Part shown: positions 60,801 through 64,000 of the stretch, in pieces
Position numbering within the stretch: the stretch's first letter is position 1
Layout of the letters: each line of letters starts with the position of its first letter
Source: Escherichia coli
Lineage (GTDB): Bacteria; Pseudomonadota; Gammaproteobacteria; Enterobacterales; Enterobacteriaceae
Assembly: GCF_016026235.1 (NCBI RefSeq)
Contig: NZ_CP065613.1
Direction: 5' to 3' (one strand)
Length of the DNA: 64,000 nucleotides
Position numbers: made by a program

Positions 60801-63800
60801 CGGTAATGTCTCCAGCACCTGCACGACCGCTTTTGCCCAGATGGCAAACTCCCGTCTGACATCACTGGCCGGAATGAGTTGTGCCGTTTCCTGTTCGAAC
60901 TTAAGACGCTCACGTTCAGACTGATACCAGGCTTTGCGCTCATGCGCGTCCATTTCGCCTTCTGCAACCGGCGGTGGTAATGCCAGAAATGCCGACACAA
61001 TATCAACCACCCGATAAAGCTTGAGGTTGCTTTCATGCCCCCTGCAACGGGTAGATTTTGCAGCCTTGCCGCAGCAGTCTGGCGATGTACACCTGACAGT
61101 GCCGCCAGTTGACTGATATTCAGCGTCAGATTTTTTAACTCTCGATCCATACCCGCTCCAGAATGTTTTAAACATGCATCTTGCGAACAACTTTAGGCAA
61201 ACGGTGTTAGTGATGAACAAAAAACAATCAAAACCGACAGCACAAAAATAAAACCACTGTAATATCAATACATTACAGTAGTGGTGATGACGAATGAAAT
61301 TTCAAAAACTAGCCTTTTTCCGCGCCGCTCCCGCCCCGTGGCAGGCCACCCCACCGGGAGGACCCGTCAGCCTGACAGCCATGACGAACGTCTGATACAG
61401 CGCCCTGCATGAATGACATCGGGATAATCCAGAAAGGAATAGCATCGTACCCACAAGAATCAGTGTAAGTGTCCTGTTTCTTCCACCCCCGCACAGGACT
61501 GGCGAGCATGAGGGACAAACCCGCGAACCATAAACGCGGTAAAAACCCGGTGTGCATCGTTTTTGATTATTCCCGCACACTCGCGCAGAAGGAGTTCCCC
61601 GTCGGGCTACGGTCATGGTTAATGCGGGAATACAGCGACGATACAGCGCATGATGTGTCAGGCCTGAATACCTTTATCCGTTAAAAGGGATATCAGTTAA
61701 GTTATCCCGTGTAGGGTATAAGCCATTATCAAGCCCACCCGTAGATGGACTTTGTAATGGATAGCTGTTGCTCAGTTCTCGTAATGCTTTGATTTTTCCG
61801 ATAACGCAGTTTTGCGTTTGCCATCAGCACGCGATATCGAGAGTCAACTGCAGTTGCTCGCGCCAGTACTCGACATTTGCTTCAATAACCGGCTTATCCC
61901 ATCGCCAGCGAGCCATCTCTCTTGCCCCATTGCTGGCTTTTGATTTCCGGTCATCGCGAATGCGACATGCTTGCTCATATTTCTGCTGCTCAGTCAGTTC
62001 ACCGCGAAGCAGACTATCAATGTGCAGGTCGCACCATACGGAGAATTTCGGATCGCACCATCTTGCAAAGGCAACTGATAACTTTGGATGCTGCCATGTT
62101 CCGCCGCCCCTGTCCTTTCGTGCCTTGCTTGTTTTTACATACCCGGAATCACGGGTATGTAGAATTTTCGATGGTTCACCTGAATAAACCTCATCCAGAG
62201 CTCTAACGTATTCGAGAGTTTCAGCGTTGGACAACCAGTGATCCAGACGCTTCCCGAAACGTTTTGCAATATCAGTGGCATTAATCCAGCCATCAGTATT
62301 GAAGCGGATAGGTTCGCCTTTGTAATTCAGTGGAACGATATTCATAGCGTCTTACCTTTTAGAAAGATGAGCCTGTTCGCACAGAAAAGCCGCCCCGAGA
62401 TGGTCGCCACCATATACGGCAGTTCTCAGGCTCAGCTTTCTGAAAGACTCGGGATTGTTACGCGCTGCGATGCGCGGTTTACTGCGGACATATAAAAGCC
62501 CCGCAAGTGCGAGGCTCATTAAATTGACTTTGTGATTTGCAAAAAAATTATTTCAGGCATTGCGTCCTGATGTATTCCTGCAGGTAGTTAACCTGCGCGG
62601 TTATCCTGTCGATTCCACTTCGGAGACGGTAATAATTGAGTTCAGCATCTGCTGTAAGTCCTGGGCTTTCTCCATAGCCCATGCTGCTGGCTCCGGTCGT
62701 TGACTTTGCACAGGTGGCGGCGACTTGCAGGCGCTTACGACCAGCAGAAACATCAGCACGGAGACTTTCGATAGTCGCGTTAGCATCAGCAAGCTCCTTT
62801 GTGTATCTGGCGTCGAGTTCTGCTACATCACGTTGACGCTTCTGCATATCAGAGATGATGGATGTGGCCTTATCGCGCTGCTCTTTGTAGGTAATGGCGT
62901 TATCACGGTAATGATTAACAGCCCATGACAGGCAGACGATGATGCAGATAACCAGAGCGGAGATAATCGCGGTGACTCTGCTCATTGATCTATCCCCCAA
63001 CAGGCTAATGCGCTTTCCTGGTCACGACGAATAACCTGTCCATAGCAGTTATTTGAACGTATGCGGCAATCGCGCCCAACATCTTTTATCCACCAGCGAA
63101 TCGCCTCGCATGCGCCCTTACGATCACCGGCATTCAGCCGCTTATAAAACGTCGACGGGAAACACTTACCGGGGCCAATGTTATAGGGGCAAAATGACGC
63201 TATACCCGCTTTTTGTGGTTCGGTCAGTGGTACTTTAATATTGCGCTCCACCCATGCCAGCGCCTTATCACGTTCAATGGCGTTAACCTGGTCGCATTTT
63301 TCCTTCGACAGTTTCATACCGGGAAAAACGGGTTTACCATCCACCATCGTGGCACCCCGACAGATGGTCCAGATGCCGGAACCATCGCGGTATGCCGTAG
63401 TGTGGTTACCTTCTTTTTCATCCAGAAACTGGTCGAGAATATCAGGCGCAGGCGCACCGATAGCAATCAGTGCCAGAACGGCAGCCGACAGGCCATATCT
63501 GATTTTTACGTTCATGGATATTTATCAGGATTTATCGGCTTCAAATCCCCGGATATGTTAAATCTTACCTCGCCAGTGATGGGCACTGGCGGGAGGAGGA
63601 TGTCAATCTGATAAACACAGAGGTGACTACGGATTACACAAATCTACCAAAACAAACTTTTGCTGATTTAATCGCACTCAGGCAAGCAGTCGTAGCTCTA
63701 ATCAACTTGTTGCCGGAGAAGGAAAAGGAATTAGTTAAAGCGCTTCTTAACAGAACTGCCGCCGATTTTTCATCATATCCACTGACAGATGACCTTGCGG

Positions 63801-64000
63801 ACCTTCCTGAATTAATTGCAGCGTCCGCCATTAAGCTTACTGAAGAGATTTACCCTCCTCAAAAATCTTCACAAAATTCCTGCGAGTAACTTCAATGCAA
63901 TAATCGTAAAACGCCGCAAACTGCTCATCGCGGCGTTTTTTTTCATCTTCAGAAGGAATCAGCACCGACAATTTTTTCTCCAGTTTTTCAATGGGCGATT

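Follow-up and report, generated by a model that had tools for sequence, protein, structure and literature searches.

Endolysin and spanin genes in the window

The end of the window, the whole 64,000-nucleotide stretch of Escherichia coli DNA that was analyzed (contig NZ_CP065613.1), carries prophage lysis genes on its minus strand, an endolysin followed by Rz with Rz1 embedded in it, all three intact. The endolysin (62982..63515) comprises 177 residues with a T4-lysozyme-like fold and has RrrQ, 933W-type R and R21 among its relatives. It matched Pfam Phage_lysozyme with an E-value of 8.6e-24 and the phage 21 endolysin structures 3HDE and 3HDF with an E-value of 6e-15. E35, D44 and T50 aligned in this comparison, and the Glu-8aa-Asp-5aa-Thr triad of the lysozyme domain occupies the same positions as in the R21 structure 3HDE. 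At the N-terminus, residues 3-28 are weakly hydrophobic and Ala/Gly-rich, with a KD17 peak of 1.93 as compared to 2.88 for the membrane anchor of Rz. Residues 8-24 correspond to GLSAAVLALIAIGAPAP, where 9 of the 17 positions are Gly, Ala or Ser, and a Pro-rich APAP motif follows the domain. A weakly hydrophobic, Gly/Ala/Ser-rich segment of this kind is characteristic of a SAR domain, which would presumably escape cleavage by signal peptidase. A recognizable Shine-Dalgarno sequence was found neither at the endolysin start nor at the same position in the phage copies.

The start of Rz (62548..62985, minus strand; 145 residues from the ATG at 62985) overlaps the endolysin stop in the sequence ATGA. 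The predicted i-spanin begins with a membrane helix (KD17 peak at residues 4-20), belongs to PHROG 13 (E 5.8e-72) and is assigned to Pfam Phage_lysis in an identical copy of the gene from another assembly (L006). Rz1 (62601..62786, minus strand), the putative o-spanin lipoprotein, lies wholly inside Rz in the +1 frame and matched PHROG 3198 with an E-value of 4.6e-29; its lipobox reads VVSA-C20 and the mature part is proline-rich. Judged by these features, Rz and Rz1 fit a two-component spanin of the embedded type. Thirty nucleotides past the Rz stop, a terminator-like hairpin of 9 pairs with a T-rich tail is found on the same strand (62496..62517). The SAR endolysin and the Rz/Rz1 pair named in the original prediction are thus borne out by the domain, structure and PHROG matches.

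The region upstream of the endolysin

Between the endolysin start and the window edge (63516..64000) no minus-strand frame contains an ORF of membrane type; the best KD17 value, 1.53, came from a frame that stays open for 42 codons at most. The holin is therefore indeed absent from this region, as had been noted. The minus strand is not empty above position 63837, however, since an ORF runs open from there to the window edge. This ORF (63837..64000, 164 bases) corresponds to the last 54 codons and the stop of a gene of the YdfR/DUF1327 family, of which only the C-terminal part outside the DUF1327 domain is inside the window. A further minus-strand ORF of 65 residues at 63634..63831 was dismissed, as it matched neither PHROG nor NCBIfam families.

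The opposite-strand ORF reported previously was found on the plus strand at 63623..63889. It has 88 codons when read from the GTG at 63623, the canonical 86-residue form starting at 63629, and overlaps the 3' end of the ydfR-family gene by 53 nt. The encoded protein, which has no membrane segment, matched the uncharacterized family PHROG 2572 over its full length (E 8e-53) and is listed by RefSeq as hypothetical protein WP_001306174.1 in CFT073 and other strains. No match was obtained in Pfam, NCBIfam or PADLOC. The label 'DUF1823' attached to this ORF in some phage records was rejected, the corresponding Pfam match reaching only E 0.25. An AlphaFold2 model showed three helices at moderate confidence (pLDDT 72, pTM 0.45), and a Foldseek comparison with viral structures gave nothing with E <1, for a weak model of a three-helix type that matches non-specifically.

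In the window, the usual start codon of this ORF is lost: positions 63629..63631 read ACG, where ATG is present in all other alleles compared by DNA alignment of nine copies and by protein alignment (T to C at 63630). The only in-frame start left is the GTG at 63623, which lies within the Shine-Dalgarno sequence GAGGTG. In strain CFSAN029787, which carries an identical copy, RefSeq does not annotate the ORF. The copy in the window may accordingly be an inactivated member of PHROG 2572.

The plus-strand terminator that had also been reported is present 19 nt past the stop of the small ORF, at 63908..63943, where the convergent ydfR tail is encoded. It has a stem of 10 bp and a loop of 12 nt followed by eight T, and it was missed by the automatic terminator scan, which allowed loops of up to 8 nt. 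The plus strand folds with −14.6 kcal/mol (z −3.65) and the minus strand with −18.7 kcal/mol (z −3.95), the minus-strand version having only UUUU after it. The stem is kept in distant modules (L019, L022), and in L022 a compensatory change from G-C to A-U changes two residues encoded by the opposite ORF. The hairpin has the predicted form of an intrinsic terminator, with a loop that is long for a terminator and with weaker T-runs in the distant copies.

On its other side, the small ORF is separated from the endolysin start by a spacer (63516..63622) that contains an invariant element, ATATTTATCAGGATTTATC, at 63518..63536, a weak plus-strand candidate for a sigma-70-like promoter (TTTATC at 63531..63536 and TATGTT at 63554..63559, 17 nt apart) and a strong hairpin at 63571..63591, in a region folding with −29.4 kcal/mol (z −4.9). 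The ATATTTATCAGGATTTATC element and both hexamers are conserved across four modules whose DNA identity otherwise falls to about 56-64%. No promoter was called ahead of the small ORF by a standard scan, whose threshold the candidate fails to reach. Scanning the whole window with Rfam at gathering thresholds returned nothing in the region, and a permissive scan of 61000..64000 only a GcvB match with E 0.56, far under the gathering score.

Is the small ORF a gene, and does it act on lysis?

Such features raise the question whether the plus-strand ORF is a gene at all, or whether the 321 bp between the endolysin and the ydfR-family gene make up a non-coding spacer or an RNA structure with a regulatory role in the late operon, with the ORF as a by-product. 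Closely related E. coli alleles show little signal of purifying selection (pN/pS 0.5, 24 variable sites), and the lack of domain, defense-system or fold matches, the negative promoter scan, the ACG in place of ATG in the window's lineage and the omission of the ORF from Prodigal-type gene calls in a public collection would all be in line with a non-coding stretch. At larger distance the picture is different. Full-length homologs of 89-93 residues with 40-48% identity, located in other phage late regions, came up in an exhaustive profile search, and comparison with these distant members gave a dN/dS of about 0.3 at dS >1. The ORF is open in all seven distinct alleles compared, every other frame containing at least three stops, the adjoining non-coding DNA appears more variable than the ORF itself, and the family is represented by a PHROG of its own. 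We therefore regard a non-coding nature of the stretch as unlikely.

Still less probable is that the ORF and its hairpin actively regulate lysis, be it through termination of or interference with late transcription or through a protein acting on holin or endolysin. The position of the module between the two genes would suit such a role, as would the stability of the hairpin on the late-mRNA strand, where UUUU follows it, and the compensatory change that preserves it at the expense of amino acids in the opposite ORF. The module is, however, not tied to the holin-endolysin junction, since in L019-L021 its place is between an Rz-like gene and the terminase genes. It is absent from K-12 Qin and many Stx phages, its product lacks a membrane segment, and the start codon was lost in the window's lineage with no other visible change.

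The holin in identical prophage copies

A look-up with the exact Rz protein of the window returned 24 contigs. Three independent assemblies among these (L006, L009 and L010) share their prophage with the window, the last 1500 nt of the window being 100% identical. Alignment of the window with L006 showed no mismatch and one gap over 5453 nt, and no difference separates the three copies over 1170 nt that begin upstream of the holin and reach the endolysin start. Two further contigs (L011 and L013) have the final holin codons at their beginning. The order of genes in the copies is holin, ydfR-family gene, small opposite-strand ORF, SAR endolysin and Rz/Rz1.

In L006, L009 and L010 the holin lies at the equivalent of window positions 64372..64587 and ends 372 nt past position 64000. 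The L006 gene is intact and encodes 71 residues matching Pfam PF04971, 'Bacteriophage P21 holin S', with an E-value of 1.5e-32; the allele in L001 matched a PHROG holin family (E 3e-36), and RefSeq labels the gene 'class II holin family protein'. The protein contains one strongly hydrophobic helix (residues 34-57, KD17 1.99). Residues from about 8 to 28, TTGVSYTTSAVGTGYWFLQLL, are rich in Gly, Ala, Ser and Thr, weakly hydrophobic and under the KD17 threshold, which would fit a first domain of SAR-like type. The N-terminus, MDQMEK, offers Met1 and Met4 as a candidate dual start for holin and antiholin. S21 68 has been described as making heptameric pinholes of about 2 nm instead of large holes (PMC9636201).

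Directly after the holin follows the ydfR-family gene, which is complete and intact in L006 (2619..3149, equivalent to window positions 63837..64367) and encodes 176 residues. Residues 1-112 matched Pfam DUF1327 (E 9e-40) and the full length matched PHROG 2091 (E 1.6e-103); NCBIfam and PADLOC searches with YdfR gave no match. [quoted passage not shown]

The search beyond position 64000 for an ORF of 60-110 residues, as had been proposed, thus led to a 71-residue holin in identical copies from other assemblies, and we infer from these copies that the genome of the window probably carries it as well. Of the two explanations offered in the original prediction, a holin further upstream, outside the window and with an insertion in between, agrees with the identical copies, and sequenced phages have kept the segment between holin and endolysin; these are the two findings that had been named in advance as refuting an unusual cassette. 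The other, a holin lost and a prophage left lysis-defective, could draw on the lack of a holin within the window and on IS elements, which can disrupt related cassettes in other strains, but is barely credible, as holin and ydfR are both intact and equally far away in every assembly with the exact Rz allele that extends far enough, the window shows no difference from those assemblies right up to its edge, and the ydfR-family frame continues unbroken to the edge, in keeping with an uninterrupted operon.

Distribution of the arrangement

The arrangement was followed in a collection of 5426 complete E. coli genomes, a set to which the source genome of the window does not belong; its best match there was 96% identical over 89% of the query. 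The stretch from holin to endolysin was covered to at least 80% in 286 of these and the small-ORF segment, at the same coverage, in 293; DNA of the ydfR family was detected in 4030 (74%). The annotation of CFT073 reads essQ, YdfR, hypothetical, rrrQ and rzpQ. In strains N5D43 and 2013C_3277 an IS3-family element is inserted in the small ORF. The same arrangement occurs in eight phage records, including 2H10, PhiR63_1, PhiR5_1 and PhiR12_1/2/2_star/5, which name propagation hosts; these host fields suggest that the records represent plaque-forming phages. A literature search for these phage records found no paper describing them, 2H10 being mentioned in passing (PMC12315714).

Discussion

Taken together, the data argue for a lysis cassette of Qin type (phage 21-like) that is intact but split by the window edge, and against gene loss; on the sequences compared we put the probability of this reading at about 0.93. 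The holin seems missing because the window edge cuts the cassette. The minus-strand late operon would comprise a class II holin, the ydfR-family gene, the 321-bp stretch with a small convergent plus-strand gene and its own hairpin, the SAR endolysin, and Rz with embedded Rz1. By homology, Q-antiterminated late transcription would run through the whole unit. The endolysin would be exported by Sec and then be held inactive in the inner membrane via its SAR domain, until build-up of the holin depolarizes the membrane and the endolysin is released and activated; the Rz/Rz1 spanin would then disrupt the outer membrane. As far as can be read from the DNA, the interval separating holin from endolysin represents accessory cargo in a slot known to vary, and there is no sign of a lysis defect.

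A more speculative extension, which we consider possible at best, is that the small ORF, its upstream element, the hairpin and the overlapping convergent tail form a self-contained mobile cassette that can enter the late operons of lambdoid phages at various places and that the prophage expresses, for example to modulate late transcription, lysis or superinfection, with YdfR perhaps serving as an accessory of the lysis cassette that acts on late mRNA.

The biological weight of the result is small, because the apparent anomaly comes from the position at which the window ends, and the layout is already known from the annotation of K-12 Qin, CFT073 and sequenced phages. It does advise caution: when a feature seems absent a few hundred bases or less from the end of a window, the extended sequence should be checked before a loss is called. 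It also bears on what the ydfR-family gene, so widespread in E. coli, and the small convergent ORF sometimes found beside it may do.

Comparison with known lysis cassettes

The closest relative is the cassette of K-12 Qin (essQ-ydfR-rrrQ-rzpQ/rzoQ), which has the same order, with a 71-residue class II holin, a DUF1327/YdfR gene and a 177-residue lysozyme, and in which the ydfR gene likewise uses a Shine-Dalgarno sequence at the 3' end of the holin. At the DNA level the endolysin is 91% identical and the holin together with the 5' half of ydfR 81%. In Qin, YdfR has 103 residues and its gene overlaps rrrQ, whereas in the prophage of the window YdfR is replaced from about residue 70 by a different, longer C-terminal part, and the convergent small ORF and hairpin are added, so that about 636 bp stand in place of 92 bp. 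The spanins also differ, Rz/Rz1 being of the Phage_lysis type in the window's prophage and RzpQ of the DUF2514 type in Qin. The gene order of Qin and the wide occurrence of ydfR-family DNA further show that the premise of the original prediction, a pinholin directly upstream of and overlapping the SAR endolysin, was too strong. SAR endolysins in other arrangements have also been described for phages P1, Mu and N4 (PMC9025707, PMC9239132, PMC12642591).

With phage 21 (pinholin S21 68/71, R21, Rz/Rz1), for which the pinholin and SAR endolysin mechanism has been reviewed (PMC9636201), the cassette shares a holin of the P21 holin S Pfam family, an endolysin homologous to R21, an N-terminal SAR-like domain and a two-component spanin. 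It differs in the accessory gene and the convergent small ORF between holin and endolysin, and the identity of the endolysin to R21 is only moderate. Stx-converting phages of the 933W type resemble it as well: the holin protein is 97% identical to those of many Stx2a and Stx2-converting phages, and the DNA of the endolysin and Rz is 88-90% identical. In many Stx2 phages, in contrast, S is directly followed by R and an antirepressor gene lies between R and Rz, and the short form of ydfR is found in Stx1a phages and in part of the Stx2a phages.

Lambdoid morons, among them bor and lom of lambda, are accessory genes that lie inside late operons and are transcribed on their own. The small ORF resembles them in its orientation opposite to the late operon, its conserved upstream element, its hairpin with a T-run and its varying locations in phages. 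Unlike morons, it invariably overlaps an ORF that converges on it, at the 3' end, and the last ~35 residues encoded by that ORF are homologous between loci.

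Lysis genes within the window

On the minus strand, an ORF that is still open at the window edge stops at 63837. The next 321 bp contain no credible gene on this strand and lead to the gene of a 177-aa lysozyme (63515..62982), whose stop is overlapped by the ATG of Rz (62985..62548), with Rz1 (62786..62601) embedded in the latter. Downstream of Rz/Rz1 lie a KilA-N gene, a DUF1441 gene and the gene for a 700-aa GpA-type large terminase, and the region is therefore the beginning of a lambdoid late operon. The lysozyme matched Pfam Phage_lysozyme (E 8.6e-24) and the phage 21 endolysin structures 3HDE/3HDF (E 6e-15, with Glu35, Asp44 and Thr50 aligned), and its residues 1-28 include an Ala/Gly-rich, weakly hydrophobic stretch with a KD17 peak of 1.93, compared to 2.88 for the Rz anchor. 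These matches and the weakly hydrophobic N-terminus make the label of SAR endolysin given in the original prediction a reasonable one. Rz and Rz1 were identified correctly, as seen from their PHROG family matches (E 6e-72 and 5e-29, respectively) and the lipobox VVSA-C in Rz1. A search of all frames of 63516..64000 for a membrane-type ORF gave none, in agreement with the reported lack of a holin upstream of the endolysin; the opposite-strand ORF (plus strand, 63623..63889) that had been described there is likewise present, and so is, for the terminator described, a plus-strand hairpin followed by eight T (63908..63943).

The KilA-N/ORF11CD3 domain gene (61824..62345, minus) is inserted between the Rz and terminase genes and showed a weak match, over a short stretch only, to the PADLOC candidate PDC-S22 (E 2e-6). 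Between it and the DUF1441 gene lies another small opposite-strand ORF (61508..61684, plus), for which gene calls in public assemblies give 58 aa and which has no PHROG match. Elsewhere in the window, Rfam matches at 7903..8049 and 8732..8831 comprise the overlapping sRNA pair SraC/RyeA and SdsR/RyeB (122 and 103 bits) and, 0.8 kb from it, another RyeA-like sequence with a weaker score (51 bits); these belong to the host chromosome and are unrelated to the lysis cassette.

Probable position of the holin gene past the window edge

Look-up of the exact Rz protein of the window in public assemblies yielded 24 contigs. One of them, L006, aligned with the window over 5453 nt with 0 mismatches and one gap, was 100% identical to its last 1500 nt and continues past the edge (L006 position 2986 corresponds to 64000). 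It completes the edge-cut ORF to a 176-aa protein, residues 1-112 of which form a DUF1327/YdfR domain (Pfam E 9e-40). Five bases upstream of this ydfR-family gene is the gene for a 71-aa holin, at L006 2399..2614 (64372..64587 if the window numbering is continued). The holin matched Pfam 'Bacteriophage P21 holin S' with an E of 1.5e-32 and shares 97% identity with holins from many Stx2-converting phages. The independent assemblies L009 and L010 equal L006 over 1170 nt that begin upstream of the holin and reach the start of the endolysin gene, and two short contigs (L011 and L013) start with the last holin codons.

Loss of the holin, leaving a lysis-defective prophage, had been proposed, and is not supported, the cassette being intact in the identical copies L006, L009 and L010. 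The other proposal, a holin further upstream with intervening DNA, agrees with the gene order in the same three copies. Because the identity extends to the edge and the reading frame is open there, we infer that the window's own genome carries the holin just past 64000. The apparent holin anomaly is a product of the window boundary, and the lysis cassette is intact and of an already known type.

On the minus strand, gataaatcctgataaatatcc (63516..63540) precedes the endolysin ATG and contains no recognisable Shine-Dalgarno sequence, whereas the ydfR-family gene uses GGGGAGAG at the 3' end of the holin; the phage copies show the same arrangement.

Distribution of the arrangement

Requiring a pinholin directly upstream of every SAR endolysin is too strict a premise, given essQ-ydfR-rrrQ in the cryptic prophage Qin and the other arrangements in which P1, Mu and N4 use SAR endolysins (PMC9025707, PMC9239132 and PMC12642591). 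Among 5426 complete E. coli genomes, 4030 contain ydfR-family DNA, in up to 9 copies per genome. The small-ORF segment (63516..63900) occurs in 314, with at least 80% of it in 293, and the stretch from holin start to endolysin start is at least 80% covered in one piece in 286; nearly all copies of the segment therefore stand in the complete holin-ydfR-small ORF-endolysin layout. The holin was present in all sampled annotations without IS interruption, including CFT073, where the lysis region carries the gene names essQ and rrrQ, and a strain with a fragmentary ydfR and no annotation of the small ORF. Eight phage records share the arrangement, among them 2H10, PhiR63_1, PhiR5_1 and four PhiR12 phages, their host fields naming propagation strains. 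The segment between holin and endolysin is thus conserved in related phages; such conservation in functional relatives, together with a holin just past 64000, had been named as what would refute the anomaly, and the prophage copies and phage records agree with both.

A real case of late operon interruption is found in other strains, E. coli N5D43 (contig L017, 1847..3060) and 2013C_3277, where an IS3-family element sits inside the small ORF (about window 63820), between the ydfR-family gene and the endolysin. L007 and L008 carry variant forms of the window's prophage whose Rz is identical; in them a 209-aa ORF (2776..3405) between holin and endolysin has no DUF1327 domain and matches long YdfR-like families (phrog_1085) in their C-terminal part only. 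The interval is thus a variable slot.

The small plus-strand ORF and its module

The small ORF matched PHROG 2572 (E 8e-53) and is annotated as hypothetical protein in most RefSeq genomes; searches against Pfam, NCBIfam and PADLOC gave no match, nor did a fold search with its moderate three-helix structure model. Closely related alleles give a weak coding signal (pN/pS 0.5), and the frame is open in 7 of 7 distinct alleles, the other frames each having at least three stops. An exhaustive profile search recovered full-length relatives, which have 89-93 aa and are 40-48% identical. Since dN/dS towards these distant relatives is about 0.3, with dS above 1, we accept the ORF, on comparative grounds, as a real protein family. 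At 63629..63631 (plus), the family ATG is ACG in the window's lineage only and ATG in every other allele compared, so that the window's copy may no longer be translated efficiently; RefSeq leaves it unannotated in the identical copy of strain CFSAN029787.

In three contigs (L019-L021) a distant homolog, rather than occupying the holin-endolysin interval, has an Rz-like (DUF2514) gene on one side and the DUF1441/terminase genes on the other. It is convergent with a short ORF, overlapping it by 59 nt, whose last 35 residues are 43% identical to those of the window's YdfR-family protein. In an alignment of four modules, the ATATTTATCAGGNTTTATC element (63518..63536) was invariant. In the interval 63518..63559 (plus) this invariant stretch, ATATTTATCAGGATTTATC, holds two ATTTATC copies 10 nt apart and abuts the endolysin start codon. 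The hexamers TTTATC-17 nt-TAT(G/T)(T/G)T, the second being TATGTT in the window, are conserved in the four diverged modules and would constitute a weak candidate promoter; a standard promoter scan did not call the TTTATC/TATGTT pair. The post-ORF hairpin (63908..63943; L019 about 1637..1665; about 684..712 in L022, another contig with a distant module) is kept across modules at 40-48% protein identity. In L022 a G-C pair of the stem is replaced by A-U, a compensatory change in which both substitutions alter residues of the convergent ORF (R to H, A to V); this suggests that selection acts on the hairpin structure itself. Taken together, the shared element, hexamers and hairpin and the different location in L019-L021 make the module look like a moron-type cassette; no observation connects its function with lysis.

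A perfect 8-bp hairpin, CGCCAGTG-ATGGG-CACTGGCG (63571..63591), falls within what would be the leader of the small ORF; on the late mRNA it stands about 55 nt ahead of the endolysin start. For the 71 nt around it the folding energy is -29.4 kcal/mol (z -4.9), and the distant modules show no clear conservation of the hairpin.

Comparison with K-12 Qin

The Qin annotation of K-12 reads essQ - ydfR - rrrQ - rzpQ/rzoQ, and a shorter, Qin-like form is found in Stx1a phages and in part of the Stx2a phages. For K-12 YdfR, a recent study reports binding to the N-terminal, catalytic half of RNase E and co-purification with RNA (PMC13232886). Homology between the window's prophage and Qin spans essQ and the first ~69 ydfR codons, then ends, and restarts 10 nt ahead of the endolysin gene. 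Where Qin has 92 bp, the window's prophage has about 636 bp, from 63526 to what would be 64161, which bring a different C-terminal half of YdfR together with the small plus-strand ORF.
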